From NCBI GenBank assembly GCA_965207975.1, contig OZ242315.1, positions 5,066,449 through 5,130,448 of the forward strand: a stretch of DNA of 64,000 nucleotides, read 5' to 3'. A model generated the notes under the pieces. The model was not told the origin of the DNA. It saw only the letters and a program-made list of their open reading frames with translations, and ran no database searches. Both the position numbers and the translations under genes were made by a program. This stretch comes from Candidatus Poribacteria bacterium. Lineage in GTDB: Bacteria > Poribacteria > WGA-4E > PCPOR2b. This document shows positions 1 through 16,301 of this stretch, one piece after another (within the stretch, counting starts at the first letter, position 1; every line of letters starts with the position of its first letter).

Positions 1-422
1 AAGTTAAAGGGACCCTCCCTCCTAGAGGTGAAAGCAATCCGTTTACCGTCAGGAGACCATGAAGGATCCCAGTCATCAGCGGGATTGTTAGTCAGGTTTT
101 GCTGATTGCTTCCATCGGCGTCCATCACGTAGATGTCATGAGTGGGCCGACCGTGTCTGTCAACGTGCCCATCCCTATCGGACTTGAAGGCTATCTGTTT
201 GCCGTCGGGCGACCATACGGGATCCCGATCGCCATCGGAATTATTGGTGAGTTTTCGCAGATTGCCCCCATCAGGGTCCATCACGTAGATTTCATTGTCC
301 CCATCCCTATTGGACGAGAAGGCAATCTGTGCCTGTGCATCAACGGCTACCATCATCGGTGTCAGACTTAATGCTACAACGCTAGCTAAAATCATACGGG
401 CGAGACTATGTCTTCGGTGCAT
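1..422 (-). CDS. PD40/TolB-like beta-propeller repeat protein, secreted (array paralog 1; 5' part only, C-terminus lies beyond window start)
   Basis: Reverse-complement translation from ATG at 420-422 gives [32 protein letters not shown] followed by repeating ...EIYVMD.DG...[12 protein letters not shown]... units. RBS GGAGG upstream on minus strand. Same family as the 8 genes that follow. Confidence 0.8.
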
Positions 423-489
423 CTGCTATGCCTCCTATGGTTTCAAATCGGTTGTTTATCCTTAAAGGTTGTTCTCTCAACAATGGTAG

Positions 490-1467
490 TTAGCGGTCTG
501 CCTGTTTGACCCGTCCCCATAGCGTGAGGACCTTATCGCCGGGCGCAACGGAAAAAGCAGAACCAAACCATGCAGGAGCAAGGTCATCTTCGGGATGATT
601 GGTGATGTTTCGAGGACTGCTCCCATCTGCATTCATTACAAAGATGTCAGGGTTCCCATCCGCCTCTCTATCAGATACGAAGACAATCCGCCTCCCGTCA
701 GGGGACCATGAGGGTTCCGTATCCTTAAAGGGATGATTGGTGAGATTTCGTGGATTACCCCCATCGGCATCCATCACATAGATTTCACCGTTCTTATCCC
801 TCCAGGACTCAAAGGCAATGTGCTCACCGTCAGGAGACCATGAGGGGTTCTTATCAGACTTGGCATTATTGGAGAGGTTTTTGAGTTTGCCTCCATCGGC
901 GTTCATCACGTAGATTTCCATGTTCCCAGCCCCCCAGGCATAAAAGACAATGCGCCTTCCGTCCGGGGACCAAGACGGCCCATAGTCAGGAGAGCCACTA
1001 TTGGTGATGTTTTTTGGTTTGCTCCCATCGGCGTTCATCACGTAGATTTCACTGCCCCCATCCCTACTCGACACGAAGGCAATCCGTTTGCCATCGGGTG
1101 ACCATGCGGGGTCCCAGTCATCAAAGTCATTGTCAGAAAGGTTTCGTTGATTTGCCCCGTCGGCATCCATCACGTAGATTTGTCGGTTCCAATCCTTACC
1201 ACTCCTATCAGCCGTAAAGACAATCTGTTTACCGTCGGGAGACCATGAGGGGTACTCGTCATCACCAGGGGCGTTAGTCAGGTTTCGCAGATTACCACCA
1301 TCGATATCCATCACGTAGATCTCCCACTCCCAATCGCCCCAAACCCTATCAGACGCGAAAACAATCTGTGTCTGCGCCTGTGCATCAACGCAGGCTATCA
1401 GCAGCGTCAGACCCAAGACTATCACACTAGCTAAAATGAAATGTGCGAGACTGTCCCTTCGTTGCAT
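490..1467 (-). CDS. PD40/TolB-like beta-propeller repeat protein, secreted (paralog 2, 6 blades)
   Basis: ORF track 325 aa. N-terminus MQRRDSLAHFILASVIVLGLTLLIACVDAQAQ (signal peptide, AQA cleavage motif). Six EIYVMDx[10 protein letters not shown] blades. Conserved tail PAWFGSAFSVAPGDKVLTLWGRVKQADR. GAGGAGG RBS. Confidence 0.88.
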   Translation of the reverse strand: MQRRDSLAHFILASVIVLGLTLLIACVDAQAQTQIVFASDRVWGDWEWEIYVMDIDGGNLRNLTNAPGDDEYPSWSPDGKQIVFTADRSGKDWNRQIYVMDADGANQRNLSDNDFDDWDPAWSPDGKRIAFVSSRDGGSEIYVMNADGSKPKNITNSGSPDYGPSWSPDGRRIVFYAWGAGNMEIYVMNADGGKLKNLSNNAKSDKNPSWSPDGEHIAFESWRDKNGEIYVMDADGGNPRNLTNHPFKDTEPSWSPDGRRIVFVSDREADGNPDIFVMNADGSSPRNITNHPEDDLAPAWFGSAFSVAPGDKVLTLWGRVKQADR

Positions 1468-1535
1468 CTGTTATCCCTCCTCTGTTTTCAAATCAGTTTT
1501 TTTATTCCTAAACACAGCTCTCTCAACAGTAGCAG

Positions 1536-2396
1536 TTATCGATCAATCTGTTTCAGCCTTCCCCATATTGTAAACCTTTTGCCGGCGGGAGACACCGAAA
1601 AAGGGGAGTTAAGCCATGCAGGACTAGCGTCACTACCGGTATGATCGGTGAGGTTTTGAGATTTGCCTCCATTGACATCCATCACGTAGATTTCAGGGTT
1701 CCCATCCCTACGGGAATAGAAGGCAATGCGCTTGCCATCGGGTGACCATGAGGGCCAGGCGTCAGTCTCGCGATTTTCAGTGAGTCTTTGTTGATTACGG
1801 CCATCGATGTCCATCACGTAGATTTCAAAGTTCTCCCAGTCCCCCTTCCTATCAGACGCGAAGGCAATCCGTTGGCCGTCAGGAGACCATGAGGGATCCC
1901 GGTCATTTTTGCGATTCTCAGTGAGTCTTTGTTGATTGCCCCCGTCGGCGTCCATCACGTAGATTTCAGAAGTGAGTCCAGATGCCCCCTTAAAGTGCCC
2001 ATCCCTAACGGTACTGAAGACAATGCGTTTACCGTCAGGGGACCAGGAAGGATCCCTGTCTTCAGTGAGATTGTTAGTGAGATTTTGAGGATTGCCACCA
2101 TTGGCACCCATCACGTAGATTTCAATGTTATGAGGATTATCCCAATCCCTATTAGACTGGAAAGCAATTCGTGTGCCATCCGGTGACCATGAGGGACGAC
2201 TGTCATGAAAAGGACTGTTAGTGAGATTTTGAGGATTGCCACCATTAGCACCCATCACGTAGATCTCAGCGTTCTCATCCCTCTGAGAGACGAAGGCAAT
2301 CCGTGCCTGTGCGTCAACAACCACCACCAGCAGTGTCAGCACCAAGGCTACTGCGCCAGCTAAAATCGTATATGCGAAATTGTATCTCCGGTGCAT
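1536..2396 (-). CDS. PD40/TolB-like beta-propeller repeat protein, secreted (paralog 3, 5 blades)
   Basis: 286 aa. MHRRYNFAYTILAGAVALVLTLLVVVVDAQA signal peptide, PD40 repeats, conserved C-terminal tail ...[28 protein letters not shown]. Confidence 0.88.
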   Translation of the reverse strand: MHRRYNFAYTILAGAVALVLTLLVVVVDAQARIAFVSQRDENAEIYVMGANGGNPQNLTNSPFHDSRPSWSPDGTRIAFQSNRDWDNPHNIEIYVMGANGGNPQNLTNNLTEDRDPSWSPDGKRIVFSTVRDGHFKGASGLTSEIYVMDADGGNQQRLTENRKNDRDPSWSPDGQRIAFASDRKGDWENFEIYVMDIDGRNQQRLTENRETDAWPSWSPDGKRIAFYSRRDGNPEIYVMDVNGGKSQNLTDHTGSDASPAWLNSPFSVSPAGKRFTIWGRLKQIDR

Positions 2397-2555
2397 CTGT
2401 ATTTCTCCTCTGTTCTCAAAAAAACCGTCAGGTCGTGATTCGGAGGGGACACCCCCTACCTCTACCGTATGTTTTTAGTAGGAGGGCATTCCGACTCCCG
2501 ACGATTGCGCCGGTTTCTAACGTGTGATTTATCAACGTTTTCCCGACAATGATAG

Positions 2556-3590
2556 TCACCGGTTGACCTGTTTGAGCTGTCCCCATATTGTAAACTTTTT
2601 GTCCGCGGGAGAAATCGAAAAAGGAGAATTCAACCATGCAGGAGTAACGTCACCACGCGGATGATTGGTGAGGTTTTGAGGATTGCCTCCATCGGCGTCT
2701 ATCACGTAAATTTCAGTGTTGTGCAAGTCCCCCTCCCGATTAGACCAAAAGGCAATCCGTTCGCCATCGGGGGACCATGAGGGGTCCTGGTCAAAACGGC
2801 GATTTTCAGTGAGTTTTTGCGGATTCTCCCCATCGGCGTCCATCACGTAGATCTCAGTGTTTTGAAGGTCACCCTTCCTATCAGATGAGAAGGCGATCCG
2901 TTTACCGTCCGGAGACCATGAAGGATACGAGTCATTATTGCGATTTTCGGTGAGTCTTTGCGGATTGCCCCCAGCCGCGTCCATCACGTAGATCTCAGAA
3001 GTGATTCCACCTTCGCCTCTAAAGTGTCCCTCCCTCTTAGACGAGAAGATAATGCGTTGACCGTCGGGGGACCATGAGGGATACCTGTCATAATTGGGAT
3101 TATTAGTGAGTCTTTGTTGATTCCCCCCATTGGCATCCATCACGTAGATTTCATAAGCGGCTACAAAGTCTATAAATTTCCCATCCCAAGACGCGAAGGC
3201 AATCCGTTTACCGTCCGGAGACCATGAGGGATCCCTGTCATAATTGGGATTGTTAGTCAGATTTTGAAGATTACCACCATCGGCGTCCATCACGTAGATT
3301 TCATAAGTGGACCAACCGTGTATAACGTGAACGTGACCATCCCGATTAGACATGAAGGCAATCCGTTTACCGTCGGGGGACCATGAAGGTGAAAGATCAT
3401 TTTTGGGATTATTGGTGAGTCTTTGCGGATTCCCCCCATCAGCACCCATCACGTAGATTTCAGGGTTCCCATCCCTATTAGACATGAAGGTAATCTGTGC
3501 CTGCGCGTCAATGACCATCAACAGCAGCACTAGATCCAAGGCTACAACGCTAGCTAAAAGAAAATGTGTCAAATTGTCCCTTCGTTGCAT
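2556..3590 (-). CDS. PD40/TolB-like beta-propeller repeat protein, secreted (paralog 4)
   Basis: ORF extends to 3614 (MKTEEAWQ...), but the family-conserved start MQRRDNLTHF with a GAGGAGG RBS places the start at 3590. Six PD40 blades and the conserved tail. Confidence 0.85.
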   Translation of the reverse strand: MQRRDNLTHFLLASVVALDLVLLLMVIDAQAQITFMSNRDGNPEIYVMGADGGNPQRLTNNPKNDLSPSWSPDGKRIAFMSNRDGHVHVIHGWSTYEIYVMDADGGNLQNLTNNPNYDRDPSWSPDGKRIAFASWDGKFIDFVAAYEIYVMDANGGNQQRLTNNPNYDRYPSWSPDGQRIIFSSKREGHFRGEGGITSEIYVMDAAGGNPQRLTENRNNDSYPSWSPDGKRIAFSSDRKGDLQNTEIYVMDADGENPQKLTENRRFDQDPSWSPDGERIAFWSNREGDLHNTEIYVIDADGGNPQNLTNHPRGDVTPAWLNSPFSISPADKKFTIWGQLKQVNR

Positions 3591-3739
3591 CTGCCATGCC
3601 TCCTCTGTTTTCAAATCGGTTTCTCATCCGTTGGGTTTGATAGAGGTCAACTGTCGGTTTATTATCGCATAAACTCGTCGCACCTGCCTCGGTGTTTATG
3701 ACTTAACCTCAACAAACCTCGTTTTCTCAATAATAGCAG

Positions 3740-4720
3740 TTATCGGTCGGTCTGCTTGAGCCGGCCCCATATCATGAGGGTTTTACCGGTGGGCGCAACT
3801 GAAAGAACAGAGTTATACCATGCAGGAGCAGTGTCATCCTCGGGATGATTAGTGAGGTTTTGCGGATTGCCTCCATCGGCGTCCATTATGTAGATATCCG
3901 GATTCAAATCCCTCGTCCTTTTCGATACGAAGGCAATCCGTTTGCTGTTGGGAGACCATGAGGGATTCCAATCTCTATCGGGATGGTGCGTAAGGTTGCG
4001 CTGATTATCTCCATTGACATCCATCACATAGATGTCCCGAGATCCCGGGTTCCCCTTGGAAGTATAAGCAATGCGCTTACCGTCCGGAGACCATGACGGA
4101 TCCTCGTCAGTACGGTCATTATTGGAGAGGTTTTTGAGTTTGCCACCATCGGCGTTCATCACATAGATGTCCATCTTCCCACCCCTAATGGAAGCAAAGA
4201 CAATGCGCTTGCCGTCAGGTGACCAGGAGGGATTATCGTAAAGAGTGTTATTCTTGGTAAGGTTTTCAGGTTTGCCACCATCGGCGTTCATCACGTAGAT
4301 GTCCATCTTCCCACCCCTAATGGAAACAAAGACAACGCGCTCACCGTCCGGTGACCAGGAGGGATCCCAGTCATCAAAATCATTGTTAGAAAGGTTTTGC
4401 TGATTGCCCCCATCGGCGTCCATTGCGTAGATTTGCCGGTTCCCACCCATATCATTCCTATCAGAGCTAAAGACAATCCATTTACCGTCCGGAGACCAGG
4501 AGGGGTCCTTATCATCACCAGGGCTGTTAGTGAGGTTTTGTAGATTCCCACCATCGGTATCCATCAGGTAGATCTCCCATTGCCAAGTGTCCCAATCCCT
4601 ATCAGAAGCGAAGACAATCTGTGCCTGAGCCTGAGCATCAACGACTACCATCAGCAGCGTTAGTCCCAACACGACAACGCTAGCTAAAATCAGATGTGCG
4701 AGAGTATCCCTCCGTTGCAT
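3740..4720 (-). CDS. PD40/TolB-like beta-propeller repeat protein, secreted (paralog 5)
   Basis: 326 aa. Conserved signal peptide and tail. Contains two near-identical adjacent blades (…IRGGKMDIYVMNADGGK… twice). Confidence 0.88.
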   Translation of the reverse strand: MQRRDTLAHLILASVVVLGLTLLMVVVDAQAQAQIVFASDRDWDTWQWEIYLMDTDGGNLQNLTNSPGDDKDPSWSPDGKWIVFSSDRNDMGGNRQIYAMDADGGNQQNLSNNDFDDWDPSWSPDGERVVFVSIRGGKMDIYVMNADGGKPENLTKNNTLYDNPSWSPDGKRIVFASIRGGKMDIYVMNADGGKLKNLSNNDRTDEDPSWSPDGKRIAYTSKGNPGSRDIYVMDVNGDNQRNLTHHPDRDWNPSWSPNSKRIAFVSKRTRDLNPDIYIMDADGGNPQNLTNHPEDDTAPAWYNSVLSVAPTGKTLMIWGRLKQTDR

Positions 4721-4804
4721 CTGTTATTCCTCCTCTGTTCTCAAATCGACCGTTTATTGTTTAGGAGTGATAGAGGTCCGCTGGTGTTGGCAACCCCTTT
4801 ACAA

Positions 4805-4880
4805 TTATAGTTATAATATAGACACAAATTCCTACTGGGAGTTCTCAAGTAAAGTAACAATTCGGACTATTATCATGTGA
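4805..4880. repeat. About 75-nt conserved non-coding element (tatagttataat(t)atagacacaaattccNactNggagttctcaagtaaagtaacaattcgga) upstream of paralog 5; second copy at 7162-7240 upstream of paralog 7
   Basis: Two copies at about 90% identity seen directly. Contains a TATAAT-like hexamer. Confidence 0.55.
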
Positions 4881-4964
4881 AATCTTTGCCCCTGCTTTGG
4901 CGTTTATGATATACCCCCTCACACTCATACATCTCAGCAAACCCTGTTTTCTCAGTAATCGCAG

Positions 4965-5981
4965 TTATCGGTCAACCTGTTTGAGCCGTCCCCACATTGT
5001 AAACCTTTTGCCTACGGGAGAAACCGAAAACGGAGAGTTCAACCATGCAGGACTATAGTCACCATGGGGATTATTGGTAAGGTTCTGCTGATTTCCACCA
5101 TCAGCGTCCATCACGTAAATTTCAGCGTTCTCATCCCTCCTAGACATGAAGGCAATCCGTTTGCCATCGGGGGACCATGAGGGATGCCTGTCAGAGACGC
5201 GATTTTCAGTGAGTCGCTGTGGATTCCCACCATCGGCGTCCATCACGTAGATGTCCCAGTTTACAACGTCCCCCTTCCTATCAGACTCGATGGCAATCCG
5301 TTTACCGTCAGGGGACCATGAGGAATTCCAGTCATTATTGCGATTGTCAGTGAGTCTTTGTTCATTACCCCCATCGGCGTCCATCACGTAAATTTCATAA
5401 GTAATTCCAAAGTCGTTTTTAAAGTGCCCATCCCTACGGGCACTGAAGGCAATCCGTTTGCCGTCGGGAGACCAGGAGGGATACTGGTCCTCAGTGAGAT
5501 TGTTAGTGAGTCTTTGTTGATTGCTTCCGTCGGCGTCCATCACGTAGATTTCAATGTTATGATCCCTATTATTATCCCTATCAGACGAAAATACGATGCG
5601 TTTACCGTCGGGAGACCACGAGGGGGACCCGTCATTAGAGGGATCGTTAGTGACGTTTTGTTGATTTCGTCCATCAGCATCCATCACGTAAATTTCATAA
5701 TTAGGAGAATCGCGTATGTTAACGTGCCCATCCCTATCGGACACGAAGGCAATCCGTTTACCGTCAGGAGACCAGGAGGGTGAAGCGTCAACATGGCGAT
5801 TATTGGTGAGTCTCTGTGGATTACCCCCATCGTCGTCCATCACGTAGATTTCAGTGTTCCCATCTCTATTAGACACAAAGGCAATCCGTGCCTGTGCATC
5901 AACGTTTACCATCAGCAGCGTTAGACCTAACACGATAACGCTAACTAAAATCATATATGTGAGTTTGTCCCTTCGTTGCAT
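4965..5981 (-). CDS. PD40/TolB-like beta-propeller repeat protein, secreted (paralog 6)
   Basis: 338 aa. Conserved [32 protein letters not shown]-terminus, 6 blades, tail ...PAWLNSPFSVSPVGKRFTMWGRLKQVDR. Confidence 0.88.
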   Translation of the reverse strand: MQRRDKLTYMILVSVIVLGLTLLMVNVDAQARIAFVSNRDGNTEIYVMDDDGGNPQRLTNNRHVDASPSWSPDGKRIAFVSDRDGHVNIRDSPNYEIYVMDADGRNQQNVTNDPSNDGSPSWSPDGKRIVFSSDRDNNRDHNIEIYVMDADGSNQQRLTNNLTEDQYPSWSPDGKRIAFSARRDGHFKNDFGITYEIYVMDADGGNEQRLTDNRNNDWNSSWSPDGKRIAIESDRKGDVVNWDIYVMDADGGNPQRLTENRVSDRHPSWSPDGKRIAFMSRRDENAEIYVMDADGGNQQNLTNNPHGDYSPAWLNSPFSVSPVGKRFTMWGRLKQVDR

Positions 5982-6075
5982 CTGTTATTCCTCCTCTGTA
6001 GTCAAATCGGTTTTTATTCTTTGTTGAACACTCAAAGCCTCCGCTCCGAGAGTCTTCGACTTCCCCTAATAGTAG

Positions 6076-7050
6076 TTATCGGTCAACCTGTTTGAGCCGT
6101 CCCCACATTGTAAACTTTTTGCCTGCGGGAGCAACTGAAAGAACAGCGTTAAGCCATGCAGGAACTTCGTCATCATCGGGATGATTGGTGAGATTTCGTA
6201 GATTCCCCCCATCGCCGTCCATTACGTAGATGTCCCGATTCAAATCCCCATTCCTATTCGACACGAAGGCAATGCTTTTGCCATCGGGTGACCATGAGGG
6301 GTGGAAGTCAACATCGGGATGATTGGTGAGGTTTCGCTGATTCTCCCCATTGGCATCCATCACATAGATGTCCCGGTTTCCCATATTCCTCAAGGAAGTA
6401 AAAGCAATGCGTTTACCGTCCGGTGACCATGAGGGATCCTCGTCAGTACGGTCATTATTGGAGAGGTTTTTAGGCTTGCCCCCATCGTCGTCCATCACGT
6501 AGATGTCTGGTTTCCCACCCCTAACGGAAACAAAGACAATCCGTTTGCCATCTGGAGACCACGAGGGTGAATAGTCAGGAAAGGGATTGTTAGAGAGGTT
6601 TTCAGGGTTGCCCCCATCGGCATCCATCACGTAGATTTCGCTAGCCCCCTTCCTATTAGACACGAAGGCAATCCGTTGACCGTCAGGAGACCATGCGGGG
6701 TCCCAGTCATCAAAGTCATTGTTAGAAAGATTTCGCTGACTCCCTCCATCGTTGTCCATCACGTAGATTTGCCGGTTCCCACCCATATCATTCCTATCAG
6801 ACGAGAAGGCAATTCGTTGGCCGTCCGGAGACCATGAGGGGTCCCTATCATCACCAGGGTTGTTAGTGAGGTTTCGCTGATTGCTCCCATTGTTGTCCAT
6901 CACGTAGATTTCAAACTTTAGAATATCCCAATCCCGATCAGACTCAAAGGCAATCTGCGCCTGTACCTCAACGGCTACCATCAACAGCGTCAGAACCAAA
7001 ACTATAACACTAGCTAAAATCAGATGTGCAAGACTGTATCTCCGTTGCAT
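6076..7050 (-). CDS. PD40/TolB-like beta-propeller repeat protein, secreted (paralog 7)
   Basis: ORF to 7065 (MEEGQ...). Family-conserved start MQRRYSLAHLILASVIVLVLTLLMVAVEVQAQ at 7050 with RBS. Six blades and conserved tail. Confidence 0.85.
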   Translation of the reverse strand: MQRRYSLAHLILASVIVLVLTLLMVAVEVQAQIAFESDRDWDILKFEIYVMDNNGSNQRNLTNNPGDDRDPSWSPDGQRIAFSSDRNDMGGNRQIYVMDNDGGSQRNLSNNDFDDWDPAWSPDGQRIAFVSNRKGASEIYVMDADGGNPENLSNNPFPDYSPSWSPDGKRIVFVSVRGGKPDIYVMDDDGGKPKNLSNNDRTDEDPSWSPDGKRIAFTSLRNMGNRDIYVMDANGENQRNLTNHPDVDFHPSWSPDGKSIAFVSNRNGDLNRDIYVMDGDGGNLRNLTNHPDDDEVPAWLNAVLSVAPAGKKFTMWGRLKQVDR

Positions 7051-7161
7051 CTGTCCTTCCTCCATTATAGTTCGTTCATGTTAAGATTTAGTGCAAAGAA
7101 ACCGAGTTTTTTCGGAAAAACTCGATTTCTCTTCGTATTTCGCACTTTCTTTTTACATGAG

Positions 7162-7240
7162 CCTTATAGTTATAATTATAGACACAAATTCCGACTAGGA
7201 GTTCTCAAGTAAAGTAACAATTCGGATTAAATAGTCATAA
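7162..7240. repeat. Second copy of the 75-nt conserved upstream element (see 4805-4880)
   Basis: Direct comparison with 4805-4880. Confidence 0.55.
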
Positions 7241-7322
7241 TCCCGTGTGTCAATCATCTTACTCCTAAGTTGCGATAACAAGGATACCAACTCACAACAT
7301 AAAAAATCCATTCACTTTTAGG

Positions 7323-7347
7323 AGTTTGGACTTAATATGTCCAAACT
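7323..7347. promoter_or_regulatory. Perfect 9-bp inverted repeat with 7-bp spacer (agtttggac-ttaatat-gtccaaact), candidate operator in the divergent P7/regulator intergenic region
   Basis: Seen directly in sequence. Lies about 200 bp upstream of the SgrR-like regulator and about 270 bp upstream of paralog 7. Confidence 0.3.
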
Positions 7348-7550
7348 CTTCAAAAATGCGCCGTTCGTCATGTTGGCGGAACGGTTTTTCTGGTCCATAT
7401 CCGTTAAAAACTAGTTGCAAATTGAAGGCAAGGAGGTTTATACTGTGTTCGGTGTGGAAAAAGTGTCTGAAAGTTCGATCGTAAGCATCAAATACCCCTA
7501 TCGTTGGAAATTCCGTTCCCAAAGATGGATCTGAATTGGCAGGTGCACAA

Positions 7551-9158
7551 ATGTCCAAAGTCGATACACTCCTCAAACTGATTGCCTATCAAAAGCAACA
7601 CCCCCAAGCAAGCTATGAAGAAATTGCCCAAGGGATTGGAATGTCATCACGACATGTCAGACGATGCGAAAAAGAGGTAAACCTTCTCAAACACCAGTTG
7701 GTTGAACCAGTCCTGCAACCGGGGCAGATCCAACTTCTGCTATCACTACTGAACCGACGTGACCCCGACCAGAAGGAGATTGCCCAACAACTTCAAGAGC
7801 ATATTGGGATTTCCTACACCGGAACCCTTCGCATCAAGCAGCCCGATGAGCAAGTGCCCTTGAGCTGGCTTGAAATCGGGGAGTTGAGTTCCGCCGTCGA
7901 AATGGGGTCCTCAGAGCGTCCGGACCCGATTCTGAGTTACTGGCTGCACCACTTATGCTATGATCCCCTCATGATGTCCCACCGAAACGGAGAAATCGAA
8001 GGACGGCTTGCAACCAGTTGCGAGCCTGTGCAAGGAAACTCTCAGTGGCAGCTGACCTTGAGAGAGGACCTCCGTTGGAGTGATGGAAAGCCGATTACGC
8101 ACGAAGAGATCATCGCGGCGTTTTCCGAGAGCCGCATCGCACCGATTATCGCAGAGATTAAACCGGACGGTAAGAACCAACTCCGGGTCCAACTTTCCCA
8201 AGAAGCACCGCTCTTCCCATTCCATCTGCGAGGTATCTGCCCACACCCCTCCCATTCTTCCCGACCTTACCGTGTGATCTCCGGCCCCTATCGAGTGAAG
8301 TATTTTCGCCCGGCTGCCATGACCTTTCGCTTTGAGCAGAATCCACATTACTACCGCGGAGTGGACAGCAGCATTGACGGGTTAACCTTGAGGCGTTTCG
8401 CACACCCCGCCAACGCCATTAAGGCGGTTGAGAGCGGCACACTGGATCTGCTTGCTGTCCATCTCCATGCGATGCAGTCCCTCTACCAATTCCCAACGAC
8501 GGTGCCTTGGCAGCAGTGGCCCTTTTTTGGAGATAGCTACTACGCCCTATTCCTCAACCGGCATCATGGGCCTCTATCGGATGAAAGGAACTGTAGGATG
8601 CTTAAAGAAGCGATCGATTACCGAGCTATTAACCTCTATCTGCGCATGGGCCAAGTTGCTGAGGAAGAAAACCTCTCACCACCTTCTCACTCTCCTCTTG
8701 ACATTCGGATTTACAGCTCGGGCGGCGTTTTTCGCGATTTGGTTCACCCCATTGGCAAGTCAATAGGTTCTTCTGTCGTGAATCCTATCTCTGGCAAAGG
8801 AGAGATGCGGGAAGAGGCGGACGCTTTTTTAACTCAACCCGTTTTTGGTCTGGAGTACCATAACCTATCCCGATTCTTCCATTCCGACGGAGAAGATAAC
8901 TTTTTCGGCTACTCCAATCCCCAAGTTGACGAGATGCTCTCTCAACTCAATAGCATAGGGAACTTAGGGGCAAGAAGAAGAATTGGGCGGCAGATATTGT
9001 CCCTCGTACAGGAGGATTTCGCGGTGATCCTGTTGGCACCCGACCTTCACTATTCACTCTCCCCGTTAGAAATCCAGTTTGACGATAACCTTACCCACAT
9101 TATCGATCTGATTCAAAACATGAGCCAAATCACTGTGGAGCGGCATCGGTCCGGTTAG
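7551..9158 (+). CDS. SgrR-family transcriptional regulator (N-terminal HTH fused to a solute-binding-protein family 5-like domain)
   Basis: N-terminus ...YEEIAQGIGMSSRHVRRCEKEV... is HTH-like. The central ...QWQLTLREDLRWSDGKPITHEEIIAAF... matches the SBP_bac_5 signature arrangement seen in SgrR-type regulators. The track ORF starts at a TTG (7536); ATG at 7551 (MSKVD) has an AGGTG RBS. Confidence 0.6.
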   Translation: MSKVDTLLKLIAYQKQHPQASYEEIAQGIGMSSRHVRRCEKEVNLLKHQLVEPVLQPGQIQLLLSLLNRRDPDQKEIAQQLQEHIGISYTGTLRIKQPDEQVPLSWLEIGELSSAVEMGSSERPDPILSYWLHHLCYDPLMMSHRNGEIEGRLATSCEPVQGNSQWQLTLREDLRWSDGKPITHEEIIAAFSESRIAPIIAEIKPDGKNQLRVQLSQEAPLFPFHLRGICPHPSHSSRPYRVISGPYRVKYFRPAAMTFRFEQNPHYYRGVDSSIDGLTLRRFAHPANAIKAVESGTLDLLAVHLHAMQSLYQFPTTVPWQQWPFFGDSYYALFLNRHHGPLSDERNCRMLKEAIDYRAINLYLRMGQVAEEENLSPPSHSPLDIRIYSSGGVFRDLVHPIGKSIGSSVVNPISGKGEMREEADAFLTQPVFGLEYHNLSRFFHSDGEDNFFGYSNPQVDEMLSQLNSIGNLGARRRIGRQILSLVQEDFAVILLAPDLHYSLSPLEIQFDDNLTHIIDLIQNMSQITVERHRSG

Positions 9159-9212
9159 CAATCCACACTATTGAATCGGTATCTTCACGCAACCTACCAT
9201 CGAATCATAAAA

Positions 9213-9246
9213 AAAACCGAGTTTTTTCTTCAAAACTCGGTTTCTT
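9213..9246. terminator. AT-rich 12-bp palindromic hairpin (aaaccgagtttt-ttcttc-aaaactcggttt) between convergent genes; bidirectional terminator-like; member of a repeat family
   Basis: Inverted repeat with flanking A and T runs. Sits between the regulator stop (9158) and the paralog 8 stop (9433). Near-identical copies at 7097, 24241, 28533 and 60886. Confidence 0.4.
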
Positions 9247-9432
9247 CCTCTAGTATCGTAGATTCCATACCCGTAGGTTCCGATAGAACGGCATCGGGCA
9301 TCCCCGATAAGATCGGGATTCCGCTTATGCTCAACTTGTCCGCCCCCAAACCTGCATCAACAACCGAAATTCGTAGGGAACGGGGATCTCCGTTCCGTTT
9401 ACCCTCACGTATCACGCATTACGTATTATTCC

Positions 9433-10446
9433 TCATCGGTCAGTCTGTTTAAGCCTCCCCCATATCGTGAATATCTTACCTATGGGGGCGACTGCAAAAG
9501 CAGGACCAAGCCATGCAGGATCGGTGTCAGCGTGGCGATTAAGGGTGAGGTTTCGCTGATTCTTCCCATCGGCCTCCATCACGTAGATTTCTCCCTCATT
9601 GCTATCCTCATAAGACGTGAAGGCAATGCGCGTGCCGTCAGTTGACCATGAGGGTTCCCAGTCCTCATGGAAATTTTTAGTGAGTCTTCGCAGATTCTCC
9701 CCATCGGCATCCATCACGTAGATTTCAAAGCCTTCAAGCTCCCCCTTCTCATCCGACGCGAAGGCAATGCGCTCACCGTCGGGTGACCACGAGGGCATCC
9801 AGTCATTCTGACGATTTTCGGTGAGTCTTTGTTCATTCCTTCCGTCGGCGTCCATCACGTAGATTTCATCAGTGATTCCAAACCTGCTTCTAAAGTGTCC
9901 AGCCCGCTGAGACACGAAGACAATGCGCTTACCGTCCGGAGACCATGCGGGAGCCCAGTCCACATGGGGATCATTGGTGAGGTTTCGCTGATTGCCACCA
10001 TCGACAGCCATCACGTAGATTTCATTATCCCAATCGTCCTCCTCCCTAGCAGTAACAAAAGCAATGCGCTTACCATCAGGGGACCATGCGGGATCCCAGT
10101 CTCCATTGGGATGGTTGGTAAGGTTCCGCTGATTACCACCATCGGCATCCATCACGTAGATTTCAAAGTCCCCATCCCTCTCAGACATGAACGCAATCCG
10201 TTTACCATCAGGGGACCATGAGGGATCCCTATCCTCAAGGGGATTGTTAGTGAGTCTTCGCTGATTCTTCCCATCGGTATCCATCACATAGATTTCATGG
10301 GTGGAGTGCCCGTCTATAACATGCCCATCCCTATTAGATATGAAGGCAATCTGTGCCTGTGCGTCAACACATACCATCAGCAGCGTCAGCACCAAGACAA
10401 CAACGCCAGCTAAAATCAAATGTACGAGATTGTATCTCCGCTGCAT
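9433..10446 (-). CDS. PD40/TolB-like beta-propeller repeat protein, secreted (paralog 8)
   Basis: 337 aa. MQRRYNLVHLILAGVVVLVLTLLMVCVDAQAQ, 6 blades, tail ...[28 protein letters not shown]. Confidence 0.88.
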   Translation of the reverse strand: MQRRYNLVHLILAGVVVLVLTLLMVCVDAQAQIAFISNRDGHVIDGHSTHEIYVMDTDGKNQRRLTNNPLEDRDPSWSPDGKRIAFMSERDGDFEIYVMDADGGNQRNLTNHPNGDWDPAWSPDGKRIAFVTAREEDDWDNEIYVMAVDGGNQRNLTNDPHVDWAPAWSPDGKRIVFVSQRAGHFRSRFGITDEIYVMDADGRNEQRLTENRQNDWMPSWSPDGERIAFASDEKGELEGFEIYVMDADGENLRRLTKNFHEDWEPSWSTDGTRIAFTSYEDSNEGEIYVMEADGKNQRNLTLNRHADTDPAWLGPAFAVAPIGKIFTIWGRLKQTDR

Positions 10447-10512
10447 CTGCTATGCCTCCTCCGTTCTCAAAATGGTTTCTTACCTTAAACACCGTTCTCT
10501 CAATAATACCAG

Positions 10513-11472
10513 TTATTGCCCGACCTGTTTAAGCCTCCCCCATATCGTGAGGGTCTTACCAGCGGGAGCAACCGAAAACACGGGTCCAAACCATGTAGGA
10601 TCCGTGTCATGGCTGCGATTATTGGTGAGGTTTTGCTGATTACCACCATCGGCATCCATCACGTAGATTTCATAGTCCCTGCCCCTAAAGTTCCTACCCT
10701 CGCTAGAAGCAAAGACGATGCGCTTACTGTCGGGAGACCAGGACGGATTCGTATCCTTAAAAGGATTGTCAGAGATTCTTCGCTGATTACCCCCATCGGC
10801 ATCCATCACATAGATGTCCAAGCCTCCACCCCTGACGGAATCAAAGGCGATGTGCTTACCGTCGGGAGACCATGAGGGATTTTCGTCATGAAAGCCATTA
10901 TTGGTAAGGTTTCGCTGATTACCCCCATCGGCGTCCATCACGTAGATCTCGACCCCATCCCTAACGGAAACAAAGGCAATCTGTTTGCCGTCAGGGGACC
11001 ATGAAGGATCCTTATCATTAACGGGATTGTTAGAGAGGTTGCGTGGATTACCTCCATCGGCATCCATCACGTAGATTTCACCGTTCCCGTTCCGCTTAGA
11101 GCCAAAAGCAATGTGCTTGCCATCGGGTGACCATGACGGTGAAGAGTCATCGTGGCGATTATTGGTGAGGTTTTTAGGGTGGCCCCCATTGGCGTTCATC
11201 ACGTAGATTTCCATGTTCTCAGCCCTAACGGAAACAAAGGCGATGCGTCTGCCGTCGGGCGACCATGACGGTGAAAAGTCATCATGCCGATTCTTCGTGA
11301 GTCTTCGCTGGTTATCTCCGTCGGCATCCATCACATAGATCTCACTGTTCCCGTTCCTATCAGACACGAAAGCAATCTGCGCCTGTGCATCAACGACTAC
11401 CATCAGCAGCGTTAGTCCCAACACGACAACACTGATTAAAATGAAATGTGCGAGCGTATCTCTCTGTTGCAT
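10513..11472 (-). CDS. PD40/TolB-like beta-propeller repeat protein, secreted (paralog 9)
   Basis: ORF to 11499. Family start [32 protein letters not shown] at 11472. Six blades, tail ...[28 protein letters not shown]. Confidence 0.85.
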
Positions 11473-11579
11473 CGGATATGCCTCCCAACCTACGAACAAA
11501 AAAAACCCAGAGAGATAACAGATGTGGACGAGGCTCTCTGGGGCTAGTCAATCTTGTGCGGGTTTAGGCGAGGGGTTTA

Positions 11580-12545
11580 TCAATCATACTCTAACACGAT
11601 CTTGATTGCCTCATCCTTCTTATACAAAGACAACTCAAACCCGCGCTGCACCTCCGTAAACGGCAGCCGGTGGGTGATCATCGGTGAAACATCAATCCGT
11701 CCTTGTGCAATCATATCCATCGCCAACGGAAAATTATTCTGTGCATCGGGACCCACTGATCCGATCAAGCGGATATTTTTCCTGAACAGGTCACCGAAAC
11801 GGAAAGGGTAGGTCGGGTCATCAGGCACACCGAACGCCAGAAGCGTCCCATCCCGCTTGACGAGATCCATACACTGATTGATCGTCTCCGTCTGATGGCC
11901 TACCACTTCAACGACCAGATCTGCCATCCGACCGTCTGTGATCTCCTCAACAGCAGCGACCGTATCCACCTCAGCGGCATTAATCGTATGCGTCGCTTGC
12001 ATCTGTTTTGCTGCGTCCAGACGAAAATCAACGAGATCTGTTGCAACGACCGTTTTCGCACCCAAGTTACTCAACAAGTGCGTAAACAGCAATCCCATCG
12101 GTCCCTGTCCGACCACAACAACATCCTGATTCAGCAGGTTGCCTAACTTGCTACACGCCCAGATCACCGTGCCGAGCGGTTGAGACATCAGGATACAATC
12201 CTTGCGTCCAAATTCCACCAACGGGACGGTAACGCCTTCGTGGGCAACAAAGTATTCCGAAAGGCCACCGGGCCGTCCCGGCAGCGCAAGCACCGCGTCC
12301 CCTTCCTTAAACCGATCTGACTTACTCGCAGCCACTACGCCGATACATTCATGGATGGTCATCCCCGGCGATAGTGGATAGGCATCGGCTGGATGTTCCA
12401 TAACAAACGATGGCATATCAGTGCCACAAATAGCGTTCATTTGATTCTTTATAAGTACAGCTCCCTCCGGGTCAGATGAAATATCAGGCTTATCAATATC
12501 GATCATCTCAATCTGACGGGGAGCAACAATTTGTGCAGCTTTCAC
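11580..12545 (-). CDS. Zinc-dependent medium-chain alcohol dehydrogenase family protein (threonine/sorbitol dehydrogenase-like)
   Basis: 321 aa. Catalytic-zinc region ...NAICGTDMPSF... and Rossmann motif VVVVGQGPMGLLFTHLLSNLGA are typical of the MDR superfamily. Confidence 0.7.
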   Translation of the reverse strand: MKAAQIVAPRQIEMIDIDKPDISSDPEGAVLIKNQMNAICGTDMPSFVMEHPADAYPLSPGMTIHECIGVVAASKSDRFKEGDAVLALPGRPGGLSEYFVAHEGVTVPLVEFGRKDCILMSQPLGTVIWACSKLGNLLNQDVVVVGQGPMGLLFTHLLSNLGAKTVVATDLVDFRLDAAKQMQATHTINAAEVDTVAAVEEITDGRMADLVVEVVGHQTETINQCMDLVKRDGTLLAFGVPDDPTYPFRFGDLFRKNIRLIGSVGPDAQNNFPLAMDMIAQGRIDVSPMITHRLPFTEVQRGFELSLYKKDEAIKIVLEYD

Positions 12546-12655
12546 ATATCCCTCCTAAACCAAAGTAATAGGCACGTTGCTTTTAATCCCGATCATCGGG
12601 GCTCCGCGTGCCGTTCACCAATTTCACGTTTCACGCTTCTGTTCTGACATGAACC

Positions 12656-14251
12656 TCAAACCTTATAGGCGAACAACTTCGCCTGAAACATCTCCACACG
12701 AATGGCAAGCATCTCACCGACATCGGTGATATCACTGCTGCCCTGCCAAGTGACAACCTGATCCTCCTGATCGCCTGTCAAGGGATCGCACATCTCAAAA
12801 GTGAAGCCTTCAAGGGGGTTAGCATCCGGGCACTGCATAGTCGGTATCCTTGCCATCAACTCAACACGGATCCATCCACCCGGCGCACAACGGTAATTCA
12901 GGCGCAGTTCATTTCCCTGTCGAAACACCGTGGGAATCGTGAATCGCCCTTCGGTTGCTGCCTCAACCCCACACAGCCGATGCGGACGCCAACGTGCCCA
13001 CCTATTCTGGGATGGCTGCATCTCCGGAAAGAATGCCTTCTGATACTGCTCCTTGACAGTGTGTAGCGTCGAGCGCGCATGGTAAGGCACCGCCCAATTA
13101 CCATCAGGCAGCTCCACTAGACCGTTCCGCCAAACATGGATTTGGCCCTCTTCCCCGCTCCCTGTGGGCCCCAACTCAGCAACCGCGCGACGTTCCGGGC
13201 GTGTCCAGATCAGTCCGTCGCGACTGAACGCAAGCTGCAAGTCCACATGATCGGTGGCGTTATGGAATACTGGAATGACCATAGCGTGTAGCTCATCCCG
13301 ACCCGGATAGGGGAAGTAGCACGCCCCATAGAACGATATATCCAAAGGATCCTGTGCATCAGGATAAATCAACAACTTTGCCGCGGGCCACTTGCGGAAA
13401 TCCTTTGTCCGCGTCAGTCCGATTGCACGGCGAAACACCTCGGTCTCAGGCATACTAGCACCCAAGGCTTGCGGTTCTTCCGGGGCAACCCCTTGGGGCT
13501 GTATGTACGCATAATAGACACCGTTGTGTACATCGTAACCCGGGCAAATGCCACCGTTCACCGAGTAGTTGGCAAGCGGCTCAGGCAGATGCGTCCAAGT
13601 CAGACGATCCGGCGAGGTCAAGCCGAGCAGCTGTCCCTTCAGAACCACCTTGCGCCCGGAATAGGATCGACCCTCGTAGTGCTCCGCACGCCAACATCTG
13701 TCCGCTTCATCGCCATCGACCTCCTCACCGGTCTCTCGGTCAAGCCAAAACCCCTTTGCTTCCAACGCTTTGTACCGCTCTTCGGGCGGTGCAGACGGAT
13801 CTTCAAAGACACTCGCCAGCAACGATGTCTTGAGGATATTGTTGTCCGTCGAACCGTTAAACTCAGTCTGCCCTAACACCGGTCGTTCCCAGTTGTAACC
13901 ATCATCACTGAGGGCGAGACAGGTCTTTTCCCCAACATTGTACAGCATGTGGAGCCGTCCGTCTTCATGCCAGACACAGCCGGGGTAGGCAACCTCCTCA
14001 GTTTCCCACTCCTTTTCAGGAATTAAAAACGGTTCAGATTTGTCCGCCGCTTCCACCCGCAAACTCACACCAATGGGCGCATCGAACATCTCGTAGTTTC
14101 CCTGACGGGTTATGCTACGGTGACCTGTGAAAATCTCTGCCAGATCCACCATCGCCATCCATGTACCGGGATTGTACCGTGGACGCACCCAGTCGCCGGG
14201 AAAATAACTGCCGCGTGCCAGAATCTGCTCCCGTTGTTCAGCCATTTCCAC
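12656..14251 (-). CDS. Hypothetical protein (531 aa), possibly a beta-propeller/glycoside-hydrolase-like fold
   Basis: Long intact ORF with no motif I can assign confidently. Recurrent DG.Y/W.P motifs hint at a propeller-type hydrolase. Confidence 0.45.
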   Translation of the reverse strand: MEMAEQREQILARGSYFPGDWVRPRYNPGTWMAMVDLAEIFTGHRSITRQGNYEMFDAPIGVSLRVEAADKSEPFLIPEKEWETEEVAYPGCVWHEDGRLHMLYNVGEKTCLALSDDGYNWERPVLGQTEFNGSTDNNILKTSLLASVFEDPSAPPEERYKALEAKGFWLDRETGEEVDGDEADRCWRAEHYEGRSYSGRKVVLKGQLLGLTSPDRLTWTHLPEPLANYSVNGGICPGYDVHNGVYYAYIQPQGVAPEEPQALGASMPETEVFRRAIGLTRTKDFRKWPAAKLLIYPDAQDPLDISFYGACYFPYPGRDELHAMVIPVFHNATDHVDLQLAFSRDGLIWTRPERRAVAELGPTGSGEEGQIHVWRNGLVELPDGNWAVPYHARSTLHTVKEQYQKAFFPEMQPSQNRWARWRPHRLCGVEAATEGRFTIPTVFRQGNELRLNYRCAPGGWIRVELMARIPTMQCPDANPLEGFTFEMCDPLTGDQEDQVVTWQGSSDITDVGEMLAIRVEMFQAKLFAYKV

Positions 14252-14648
14252 CTCTTTCTCAAGCCTTCAGACTAGTTTGTTCATTGGTACATTGGTTCAT
14301 TAATAAGCGAGTGAACTCAATCGGTTTCGGTTATACTATAGCAGATTTCAGAATTAACTAGACACTGTACCGCAAACTGTTAGTTTGCGGCTTGGGATCA
14401 CAATCTAACAGTTTGTGGTACAAAAGGAGATTGTAGGTCGAGATTCATATCTCGACAAAACACCCGGCGTGTTGTGCCAACGAATACACGGAATATTATG
14501 TAATGTTATAGGTATTGTCGATTTTGGAAAATCGACCTACAGAATGAAGATTAATCTTTTAATTCGGTAATTTCCCAGCGATGCCCGGTGCGGTTAAAAA
14601 CCGCACCCACCGGGCCTGGGGAAAACGCGGAACGCGCCGCCTCCCACT

Positions 14649-16301
14649 CTAATAACCCGCCGAGTCTTGGTAGCGAGAAACCGTCTCCTCTCCACAGGTC
14701 ATCGTCTGTAGCAGGGCAGGACACCCCTCCTTCGTCGCAGCAACAGCGCGGGCAATCGCACCGGGCAGTTGGTCCGGTGTCACAACCGTCTCAGCAAAGG
14801 CACCCAAACTCTCGGCAACCTTGGCATAATCCCCGGACAACTTGTCGCTATCCCAGTGTTCTGAGGCATACGGCATATTCTGATTGTAGTGAGTCATTAT
14901 ACCGTTGTTCAAAACGACAGTCAATATCGGAATCTCAGACCGTACCGCTGTCTCAATGTCCAAGCCAGCCATACCGAAGGCAGCATCGCCCATCACATTG
15001 ACGACGAGTTTCTCAGGTGCAGCCATCTTCGCACCGAGTGCCAACCCCAAACCGTAACCCAACTGCGTCGACTTGCCCCAACCGATATAGGTATTTGGAG
15101 CGTCGGTCGTCCAGAATGGACACATCCGATCCCGCGGATAACCCGCATCGTGCGTAGCAATGGTGTTCGACACATCCACCGCTTTGTGAAGTTCGTTGAG
15201 GACACGATACTCGTTCATCGGGACTTCATCCGATTCGAGCCGCGGCCGCCATTCTGCCATCCACTCCGCTTTCACCTTCCGAATCTCGTTTGCTACACCG
15301 TTGACATCGGCTCTCCCCGCTTCACCGATCTGCCGCTTCACCTCTTCAATCATCTGTTGCAACACCAACTTCGCATCGCCAACAGCACCGTGCGCCAACC
15401 GATGATGCACATTCAGATCGTCGGTCGAATTAGTAATCTGAGCCACGGTAACACCAGCCGGTATCTGCGGGCTGTAACCGCTGCTCAGCGTCGTCGCAAT
15501 ACCAAGCACAAAGTCCGTCTGCCTCAGAAAGTGACCCACCATCTGAGTGCCACTACTTCCTGCCACGCCCAACGCCAGAGGATGGTCCTCGGGGAAGCCA
15601 CTCTTACCTTGTAAGGTAGTCAGCACAGGAATGTTCGTCAACTCTGCCAGCGTGACCAACTCATCCGTCGCTTCGGCGTACAGTATACCTCTGCCCGCGC
15701 TGATAACAGGGTTTGACGCGTTGAGCAAAGCAGTAACCATATCGCGGACATCATCGGGATCCCCCGCCGATTTGCGCACCTGCACCGGTTCATAGTTGAA
15801 AGCACTATCCGGAATTTCCTGACTCGCAGCATCTGAAGAAATCTCCAAAAGTACCGGTCCCGGTCTCCCATGTTTCATCCGAGTGAACGCCATCCGCATC
15901 AGTTGGGGGATGCGATCCGCCTGATTAATATACTCCGTCCACTTGGTAACTCCACCGTAGTTCCGGTACGAAACGAAGCCCGGATGCATACCCACACCCG
16001 AAAGAGGTGGTCCTCCGGGCAGGAGCAGTATCGGCACCGAATCAGCATAAGCTTGCGCGACACCACCAAAGGCGTTCTCAGCCCCCGGGCCAGATTGCAT
16101 CATGAACACACCGATGCGGTTACCGCACATAATGCGACTATACCCGTCAGCCATGTTCACACCCGCTCGCTCTTGGCGCGAGAGAATTGGCCTCATCCCC
16201 TCTTTCGCAGCCGCGTCTATGAGTGTATGGTGCGGGAAGCACGCGAACCAGTCAAGTCCCTCAGCTTTAAGAATCTTAGCAATCGCTTGATTACCTGTCA
16301 T
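14649..16301 (-). CDS. Thiamine-pyrophosphate-dependent enzyme (acetolactate synthase large-subunit family)
   Basis: 550 aa. N-terminal TPP-enzyme Pyr domain (GNQAIAKILKAEGLDWFACFPHHTL...) and C-terminal TPP-binding motif ...NVMGDAAFGMAGLDIETAV...LNNG. Confidence 0.75.
   Translation of the reverse strand: MTGNQAIAKILKAEGLDWFACFPHHTLIDAAAKEGMRPILSRQERAGVNMADGYSRIMCGNRIGVFMMQSGPGAENAFGGVAQAYADSVPILLLPGGPPLSGVGMHPGFVSYRNYGGVTKWTEYINQADRIPQLMRMAFTRMKHGRPGPVLLEISSDAASQEIPDSAFNYEPVQVRKSAGDPDDVRDMVTALLNASNPVISAGRGILYAEATDELVTLAELTNIPVLTTLQGKSGFPEDHPLALGVAGSSGTQMVGHFLRQTDFVLGIATTLSSGYSPQIPAGVTVAQITNSTDDLNVHHRLAHGAVGDAKLVLQQMIEEVKRQIGEAGRADVNGVANEIRKVKAEWMAEWRPRLESDEVPMNEYRVLNELHKAVDVSNTIATHDAGYPRDRMCPFWTTDAPNTYIGWGKSTQLGYGLGLALGAKMAAPEKLVVNVMGDAAFGMAGLDIETAVRSEIPILTVVLNNGIMTHYNQNMPYASEHWDSDKLSGDYAKVAESLGAFAETVVTPDQLPGAIARAVAATKEGCPALLQTMTCGEETVSRYQDSAGY

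Follow-up and report, generated by a model that had tools for sequence, protein, structure and literature searches.

A helix-turn-helix protein with a family 5 solute-binding fold and a candidate operator between two predicted divergent promoters in a Poribacteria PD40 array

The DNA described here is a stretch of 64,000 nucleotides (nt), hereafter the window, from a Candidatus Poribacteria bacterium (assembly GCA_965207975.1, contig OZ242315.1, positions 5,066,449 to 5,130,448 of the forward strand). Minus-strand paralogs encoding PD40/TolB-like beta-propeller proteins of ~330 amino acids (aa), at least nine in tandem and recognized by Pfam PD40 (E 2e-67), fill positions 1-7065 and 9433-11499. 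Between them lies a plus-strand gene for a 535-aa protein, referred to below as the regulator. As predicted from its domains and homologs, the regulator is a cytoplasmic protein that joins a helix-turn-helix (HTH) to a solute-binding protein family 5 (SBP5) fold, and it belongs to a narrow family found in Poribacteria alone. A dimer of this protein may bind a perfect palindrome upstream of its gene, in a ligand-dependent manner through the SBP5 domain, and control both of the divergent promoters that flank the palindrome; we regard the chances of this reading as about even. A preliminary description of the locus had presented the regulator as the lone, divergently transcribed non-paralog gene of the array and had given it a 485-bp region shared with PD40 paralog 7. 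Both points hold: no other non-paralog gene occurs among the PD40 paralogs of 1-11499, which lie on the minus strand on both sides of it, and the intergenic region spans 7066-7550 (485 bp). The features on which the argument turns are the following.

7551-9158, plus strand: regulator gene, 535 aa; the open reading frame (ORF) is open from 7536, and the conserved start is ATG 7551.
7322-7348, no strand: candidate operator, a perfect 10-7-10 palindrome GAGTTTGGAC-TTAATAT-GTCCAAACTC, conserved with dyad-symmetric variants in 20+ loci.
7415-7444, plus strand: predicted sigma70-type promoter of the regulator, from a promoter scan and conservation; -35 TTGCAA at 7415-7420, 18-nt spacer, -10 TATACT at 7439-7444.
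7281-7310, minus strand: predicted divergent promoter toward the PD40 array; -35 TGGATT (reverse complement of 7305-7310), 18-nt spacer, -10 TATCCT (reverse complement of 7281-7286).
6076-7050, minus strand: PD40/TolB-like beta-propeller paralog 7, with its probable start at ATG 7050 (MQRR...).

The regulator carries its HTH at residues ~3-50, followed by a helical linker; the SBP family 5 fold occupies the remainder of the chain, beginning near residue 130. The Pfam SBP_bac_5 model matches with 81.9 bits (cut-off 32.4; E 6e-23). An AlphaFold2 (AF2) model built from a diverse alignment (predicted local distance difference test, pLDDT, 78; predicted template modeling score, pTM, 0.69) was compared with the Protein Data Bank (PDB) by Foldseek, giving 167 matches at E<=1e-3 with NikZ, OppA, and MppA at the top; the best of them, which include chitin-oligosaccharide binding proteins besides these three, reached E 1e-19 to 1e-22. 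An earlier AF2 run on a shallow alignment (A2; pLDDT 42) was discarded, and a metagenome locus scan with the same alignment yielded 2 loci only. The C-terminal family 5 solute-binding domain proposed earlier is thus borne out by both the Pfam score and the structural matches. No signal peptide is present, and the protein opens with a polar, helical stretch (MSKVDTLLKLIAYQKQHPQAS). Three helices, the third of them basic (SSRHVRRCEKEV), make up the first 50 residues, which are near-invariant across the family.

Homologs with 68-92% identity occur in many Poribacteria genomes. When its first 135 aa were searched with phmmer in a set of 1.84 billion representatives, 31 clusters were recovered, and each full-length one that was checked belongs to the same family; all organism-named members are from Poribacteria. 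Divergent full-length members (28-50% identity) contain SBP_bac_5, and none of six matches SgrR_N. Literature searches returned no account of this regulator family or of PD40 arrays in Poribacteria. In some orthologous loci the regulator is duplicated in tandem (L004 6001-9282; L022 6001-9279; L023 3335-6613). Mobile elements also adjoin the gene in places: an IS200/IS605-type element (Y1 transposase and OrfB) lies directly downstream of it in L021 (7837-9134), and DDE transposases are its neighbors in L002 and L029.

The palindrome had been noted earlier as a perfect 9-7-9 repeat, AGTTTGGAC-N7-GTCCAAACT, at 7323-7347. It is indeed perfect, extends to 10-7-10 (7322-7348), and is strengthened as an operator candidate by comparison across 20+ related loci (related loci are labelled L001-L032 and all come from chromosomes of Poribacteria metagenome-assembled genomes (MAGs), 6-7 Mb). 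Within the window it is single-copy even when 3 mismatches are allowed (0.02 expected). Perfect palindromes with arms of at least 10 bp occur at 9 window sites, compared with 0.3 in shuffles; most of these belong to dispersed repeat families, and 7322-7348 is unique. Across the loci, at least six dyad-symmetric half-site variants were found (GTTTGGAC, GTCTGGAC, GTATGGAC, GTTTGAGC, GTTATGAC, and GTACTGAC), together with some asymmetric intermediates. In 16 sequences, 88.8% of cells are paired and both sides have changed in four of the ten pairs; the covariation score was reached by none of 500 shuffles, and slid controls fall to 16-45% paired.

The position of the palindrome is as regular as its symmetry. 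In an alignment of nine orthologous upstream regions, TTGCAA-N18-TATACT is the most conserved block; all nine have identical promoter hexamers and an identical block GGTTTATACTGT, and the spacer varies in sequence and is fixed in length, also in distant paralogous loci. Hexamers 18 nt apart, within the 16-18 nt usual for sigma70, and conserved over a variable spacer fit a sigma70 promoter, whose activity is predicted. On the other side, the divergent promoter sits 11 nt off the palindrome arm, within a conserved ~50-nt block to the left of the palindrome that in all modules (the palindrome with its two flanking promoters) reads cTGGAt/cTGACa, 18-19 nt, TAT(T/A)CT on the minus strand. The palindrome always lies midway between two back-to-back sigma70-like promoters in 20+ related loci. 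In the canonical loci (L016, L021, L029, L030, L031, L011, and L009b) the gaps between its arms and the two -35 boxes measure 11 nt and 12 nt, which places its center ~61-62 bp from each predicted start site. The layout recalls the sites of class I activators, such as that of CRP at -61.5, and operators shared by divergent promoters, in that one inverted repeat serves two back-to-back promoters; it differs from these in its half-sites of 8-10 bp and its 7-bp spacer, and the start sites here are predicted. Copies of the module also head PD40 arrays several kb away from the regulator in L002 and L009, and the connection between regulator and PD40 array drawn in the preliminary description recurs in most of the ~30 related loci.

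The same comparison bears on two upstream ORFs (uORFs) to which strong ribosome-binding sites had been ascribed. Both exist as open frames (ATG 7337, 25 codons; GTG 7445, 29 codons), but neither is supported, because start codons, frames, peptides, and the supposed ribosome-binding site 'AAGGAGG' all vary among orthologs. This AAGGAGG lies within the 18-nt spacer of TTGCAA-N18-TATACT, where orthologs read AAGGCGG, AGAGAGG, or AAGACGG. GTG 7445 abuts the -10 element and is GTA in other orthologs, and the ATG in the palindrome loop shifts in position and frame, with different encoded peptides.

A further line of evidence comes from the recognition helix, whose variants track those of the half-site and so support the palindrome as the operator of a dimeric regulator. 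The helix RHVRRC accompanies the half-site GTTTGGAC or GTATGGAC, RHVSRC accompanies GTCTGGAC (L009, L010), GHV[RKG]R accompanies GTTTGAGC or GTTTGGGC (L030, L031, L011), and RHV[LI]RC accompanies GTTATGAC (L013, L032).

In the mechanism proposed, the regulator would be a one-component transcription factor in the cytoplasm, with the SBP5 fold (OppA/NikA-type) as its ligand sensor. A dimer would contact the palindrome through the recognition helix S-S-R-H-V-R-R-C, and the state of the ligand would set its action on its own transcript and on the leftward transcript into the PD40 genes, while PD40 sub-operons would additionally be driven by a 75-nt promoter-like element of their own, which may be of the extracytoplasmic function (ECF) type. 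The domains, conservation, geometry, and covariation are observed, and what is inferred is binding to DNA, the direction of regulation, and the nature of the ligand.

Several observations weigh against this interpretation. No Pfam HTH model passes its threshold on the regulator N-terminus, the matches to HTH_PafC (20-22 bits), HTH_24, and Sigma70_r4 all being sub-threshold. Within the window, neither the palindrome nor its half-site GTTTGGAC was found at other array promoters, which goes against the earlier expectation of further sites there; the bare half-site has 4 extra copies, near chance (2.4 expected in total). The proximal copies of L004 and L005 carry a degenerate palindrome and that of L001 carries none, although intact distal copies occur in these loci. 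The pairing of helix and half-site is broken in L002 (an RHVRRC helix with a GTCTGGAC site), and the correlation amounts to about four paralog classes, confounded by common descent. The promoters and start sites are predicted from sequence. The asymmetric intermediates of the palindrome are mostly G.T on the plus strand, which is also compatible with an RNA or single-stranded DNA hairpin. Finally, array control in the window itself may be weakened, because the operator lies 54 nt farther from the regulator promoter and because a terminator-like hairpin, carried by a transposable element described below, precedes the first PD40 gene. The additional distance results from the following insertion.

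7349-7402, plus strand: 54-nt insertion between the palindrome and the right-hand -35 box, with a terminator-like hairpin CCGTTC..GAACGG (7361-7384) followed by T5.

This insertion is found only in the window, L010, L017, and the distal copies of L001, L004, L005, and L022-24, the canonical loci having 12 nt in its place; it moves the palindrome center to about -116 of the regulator promoter and leaves the left-hand spacing intact. Visual comparison suggests a resemblance, on the opposite strand, to the 5' coding portion of a small divergent gene. The stem of its hairpin (hairpin 2), which a terminator scan also picked up, covaries (CCGTTC/GAACGG, TTGTTC/GAACAA, TTGTTC/GAACGG). A role of hairpin 2 as an attenuator of the regulator was rejected, as it is missing in most orthologs and elsewhere lies 400-700 nt from the gene.

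The symmetry of the palindrome could also have been selected at the level of a nucleic-acid hairpin, either in a ~120-nt plus-strand RNA or as a DNA cruciform, which we consider unlikely. In the small-RNA version, transcription would start at a GATAA(T/C) box (7275-7280) and run through a conserved 45-nt block and the palindrome as hairpin 1, with hairpin 2 and its U-run (7361-7389) as terminator. Such an RNA would account for the compensatory double changes in the stem and for the predominance of G.T among the intermediates (T.G in L004, L005, L017, and L022-24; G.T in L011, L009, and L031). It would also suit the covariation of hairpin 2 through U.G intermediates, the T5 that follows it, and the loop, which keeps nTAAyry. 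RNAalifold folds the whole module as one long hairpin, as would follow from its quasi-symmetric layout. However, since the hairpin lies upstream of both conserved promoters, a third, weak promoter without a -35 box would be required; hairpin 2 is missing in canonical modules (L016, L021, L029-31), and L021 has an A.C mismatch on the plus strand. Rfam searches gave no family match: in window positions 6500-9600 nothing was found at E<=1 besides a chance snoRNA match, SgrS included, and nothing was found in the relatives. An RNA would moreover leave unexplained why the distances to the two -35 boxes are fixed at 11/12 nt and why the palindrome variants correlate with the recognition helix.

The gene order of the relatives introduces another candidate for the protein that binds the palindrome. 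Eleven syntenic loci share the order PD40 array (minus strand), a small orphan gene of 97-103 aa (minus strand), the module, the regulator (plus strand), alcohol dehydrogenase, a ~530-aa protein, and a thiamine pyrophosphate (TPP) enzyme. The last three correspond to a trio that follows the array in the window (11580-16301; a zinc-type alcohol dehydrogenase, a 531-aa protein without a family match, and a TPP-dependent enzyme) and is kept in all syntenic loci.

L001 8545-8838, L022 4671-4982, and L010 3990-4271, minus strand: small orphan protein genes, 97-103 aa, divergent from the regulator operon.

The palindrome might be the operator of this small basic protein, which would then regulate itself, with the HTH-SBP5 protein binding elsewhere or nowhere; we judge this distinctly unlikely. 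The gene adjoins the module in L001, L004, L005, L010, L017, L022-24, L029, and L030. Its product forms a conserved family of 76 clusters that often share contigs with the regulator, and since a search begun from the small gene reaches the same cluster, the linkage does not stem from the way in which the loci were gathered. The conserved core, KRQTYHIHVDLIAKLRGYAYWEQ..ISEVVN.ALEQFF, suits a strand-helix-helix pattern as far as ISEVVN.AL and looks ribbon-helix-helix-like by eye, a label that is only a guess because no Pfam, NCBIfam, or PDB sequence match was obtained. On the other hand, the palindrome is perfect where the small gene has been lost (the window, L003, L006, L007, L016, and L021), and the small protein does not track the half-site variants, because its core is invariant across loci with differing palindromes.

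In paralogous and distant loci, the regulator is the last gene of a four-gene operon that begins with a precursor-like ORF of 56-57 aa (..NFPVNLFTPEEDT..CCSY..IWETDVDE) and continues with a family 2 glycosyltransferase (GT2) and a radical SAM (rSAM)/SPASM maturase. The maturase resembles TIGR04280, although its 232 bits stay below the cut-off of 400, and its SPASM domain scores 40 bits (cut-off 27). The precursor-like ORF is conserved (56-70 aa, with a CC-motif, ..NFPVNLFTPEEDT..CC(S/D)Y..IWETDxDE) and has no NCBIfam match; the module stands directly upstream of it in L009, L029, L030, and L031. L013 and L032 retain precursor and regulator only.

L009 2825-2995; L029 5485-5655 (minus strand); L030 3607-3780 (minus strand); L031 412-585; L013 5283-5495; L032 7640-7813: precursor-like ORFs.

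A 36-aa ORF at the start of L027 was rejected as a precursor, since it is the tail of a gene truncated at the contig edge. Between its rSAM gene and its regulator, L031 (3492-3698) has a 68-aa ORF composed of tandem repeats (AVSNRAMTPVG x5), which probably represents a repeat element and not a gene.

Beside the regulator of the window, the precursor ORF and the rSAM/SPASM maturase are absent, with leader remnants only. As reconstructed from the loci compared, the ancestral rightward operon consisted of the CC-motif precursor, the glycosyltransferase, the rSAM/SPASM maturase, and the regulator, and would have been driven by what is now the predicted regulator promoter; the leftward unit began with the small orphan gene, and all but the regulator have been lost in the window. 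Two features of the window record these losses.

7445-7550, plus strand: degenerate 5' leader, a remnant after the loss of the upstream operon genes, which includes the 'uORF' at GTG 7445.
7250-7268, minus strand: deletion scar of the small divergent gene, in which the Shine-Dalgarno sequence TTAGGAG is fused to the last codons (AAGATGATTGA), by comparison with L001, L004, L017, and L022-24, where the 97-103 aa gene is intact.

The leaders of orthologs are ~250 nt long and carry the first ~8 rSAM codons (MKNL..), L010 retains an rSAM fragment, and the leader of the window is further deleted. The small divergent gene has been deleted in the window and in L003.

The operon also admits the reading that the HTH-SBP5 protein is a peptide-binding accessory of rSAM/SPASM maturation, which would hold or deliver the precursor and use its helical N-terminus for protein or peptide recognition. 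It has in its favor the place of the regulator gene at the end of the precursor-GT2-rSAM operon in L029, L030, L031, and L009, the overlap of the regulator start with the rSAM stop in the distant L027 (a thermophilic Poribacteria MAG), which suggests translational coupling, and the SBP5 fold itself, which is the fold of oligopeptide binders. This role is nevertheless doubtful at best, given that the regulator is strongly conserved in at least 11 loci without precursor, GT2, or rSAM genes, and that its N-terminus is patterned as a DNA-binding HTH with a basic recognition helix whose variable positions track the palindrome variants.

If the regulator does act at the palindrome as a dimer, a more far-reaching version of that mechanism, rather unlikely as it stands, may be put forward. 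The regulator would be the cytoplasmic receptor for the operon product in the relatives, that is, a ~56-aa CC-motif precursor modified by the glycosyltransferase and the rSAM/SPASM maturase. A single operator shared by two divergent promoters would couple this signal, similar to a ribosomally synthesized and post-translationally modified peptide (RiPP), to the secreted PD40 arrays, and paralogous circuits would be insulated by co-evolved pairs of recognition helix and half-site. Cytoplasmic peptide-sensing regulators of the RRNPP/Rgg type serve RiPP or quorum-peptide loci, an example being Rgg on the operon of the rSAM-made streptide. The operon of the relatives resembles these loci in that it joins genes for a short precursor peptide, a radical SAM maturase, and an HTH regulator, and a plausible logic would be that a peptide product feeds back on its own operon. 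The regulator differs from the RRNPP/Rgg type in that its sensor is an SBP5 fold instead of tetratricopeptide repeats.

With regard to SgrR, to which the preliminary description had assigned the HTH, the likeness is one of design. In gammaproteobacteria, the SgrR/DsvR family (SgrR_N, PF12793, plus SBP_bac_5, PF00496) is likewise cytoplasmic, combines an N-terminal HTH with a C-terminal family 5 domain, and adjoins a divergent control region; SgrR regulates its own expression and is an activator of sgrS, which is encoded divergently (Vanderpool & Gottesman 2007, as cited in PMC13060122). The N-terminal HTH and the SgrR-like two-domain design of the regulator stand, and in profile searches SBP_bac_5 is significant, whereas SgrR_N (HTH_SgrR) reaches only 16.9 bits against a cut-off of 24, over residues 39-88 and model positions 65-111 only. 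E. coli SgrR gives 147.8 bits for SgrR_N and an SBP_bac_5 match as in the regulator. When the regulator family was aligned with E. coli SgrR by hhalign, the SBP part alone aligned and the N-terminus did not. Membership in the SgrR family is therefore not established, and the regulator is best described as having an SgrR-like architecture. Its N-terminal domain is also ~30 residues shorter than that of SgrR, SgrS/SgrT were not found at its locus, which is linked instead to the rSAM/SPASM peptide operon and PD40 arrays, and its family has been seen only in Poribacteria. That it is an SgrR orthologue running a sugar-phosphate stress response via a divergent small RNA, as in enterobacteria, is extremely improbable: the domain order, a BLASTP match to E. 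coli SgrR (E 5e-4, 23% identity, residues 46-226), and the conserved divergent control region fit, but SgrR_N is sub-threshold, the N-terminal search of 1.84 billion representatives returned no SgrR-like proteins, SgrS has no match, and the neighborhood consists of peptide maturation and PD40 genes, not sugar transport.

The periplasmic cluster-C solute-binding proteins (OppA, MppA, NikA/NikZ, and the chitin-oligosaccharide binding protein) share the fold of regulator residues ~130-535 and also appear as PDB sequence matches. The regulator differs from them in having neither signal peptide nor lipobox, in its fusion to an HTH, in the lack of adjacent ABC transporter genes, and in an identity of 13-18%.

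The remaining features of the intergenic region and its surroundings concern the PD40 side and repeat elements.

7166-7245, minus strand: conserved, promoter-like 75-nt element ahead of PD40 paralog 7, with core ACTTGAGAACTCCTAGTCGGAATTTGTGTCTATAAT and GAACTC (7199-7204)-N16-TCTAT (7178-7182).
4807-4880, minus strand: the other copy of the 75-nt element in the window, ahead of the PD40 paralog at 3740-4720.
7073-7163, no strand: 91-bp insertion resembling a miniature inverted-repeat transposable element (MITE), between the 75-nt element and the PD40 start, with imperfect terminal inverted repeats CGTTCATGT...ACATGAGCC.
9211-9246, no strand: bidirectional terminator-type hairpin AAAAACCGAGTTTT..AAAACTCGGTTTCTT, common to the regulator and the convergent PD40 gene.

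The conserved 75-nt element reported earlier in two copies is real. These two window copies (7166-7245 and 4807-4866) are 95% identical over 61 nt, against 79% for the adjacent coding sequence, and eleven copies at nine loci share the invariant core ACTTGAGAACTyCyAGTnGGAATTTGTGTCTATA. Wherever the ATG is visible, the element precedes the PD40 start by ~87 nt, except in the MITE-displaced window copy; this distance was not measurable for the L006 and L022 copies. GAGAACTC-N16-(G)TCTAT is invariant in all eleven. ECF promoters have AAC in the -35 element and spacers of 14-17 bp (PMC5758882), and the element, which fits this general description, may be a promoter of this type; a sigma70 reading was rejected on account of the 22-nt TTGAGA..TATAAT spacing. 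It contains no palindrome half-site, and it is most readily understood as an independent promoter, duplicated ahead of PD40 sub-operons, rather than as another site for the regulator.

The MITE-like insertion shows terminal inverted repeats, a target duplication (in the window, 8 bp, TTATAGTT, at 7065-7072 and 7164-7171), copies at unrelated sites, and no coding capacity. Further copies occur in L003, where the position differs and the duplication is of 9 bp (AATAGTCAT), in L010, and in L002/L014. It carries one copy (7097-7130) of a dispersed hairpin family, AAACCGAGTTTT-loop-AAAACTCGGTTT with flanking A and T runs, whose other copies are at 9211-9246, 24243-24274, 28534-28567, and 60884-60915; by sequence this family is of the REP-like (repetitive extragenic palindromic) or bidirectional terminator kind, and the MITE hairpin could lower read-through into PD40 paralog 7. 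Two other repeats were observed in the window, namely perfect ~28-bp palindromes GTAG(G/T)GAAC..GATC..GTTC(C/A)CTAC at three sites (28467-28494, 37664-37691, and 55334-55361) and a dispersed, intergenic, short tandem-like repeat, GGTAGGCGCTGTTTCCAACTGCGCCG... (18147-18247, 30885-31028, and 32949-33051), also found in L002 (7700-7860) and in other related genomes.

All PD40 paralogs in the window share an N-terminus of the form MQRRxxLAHLIL..., a signal or anchor. The start of paralog 7 is probably ATG 7050, because all paralogs begin with MQRR and ATG 7065 overlaps the MITE target duplication. The C-terminal tail, FTMWGRLKQVDR, is conserved as (F/L)T(M/I)WG(R/W)LKQVDR, with Trp and Lys spaced four residues apart.

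To our knowledge, gene regulation in Poribacteria, which are uncultured, is essentially unknown. The locus supplies a candidate regulator-operator pair with a clear geometry that is open to testing. It also points to a lineage-specific family of factors that reuses a transporter-type binding protein as a sensor, as SgrR does, with a different DNA-binding head, not recognized as SgrR_N by Pfam, and that is genomically tied to a radical SAM peptide-maturation operon and to extensive tandem arrays of genes for secreted TolB-like propellers. If the ligand were the modified peptide, this would be a new route for bacteria to sense their own RiPP products, and an OppA-like fold fused to an HTH would represent a new class of peptide-sensing one-component regulator. 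The paralogous pairs of operator and recognition helix would then offer a natural case of such pairs diverging inside one genome.

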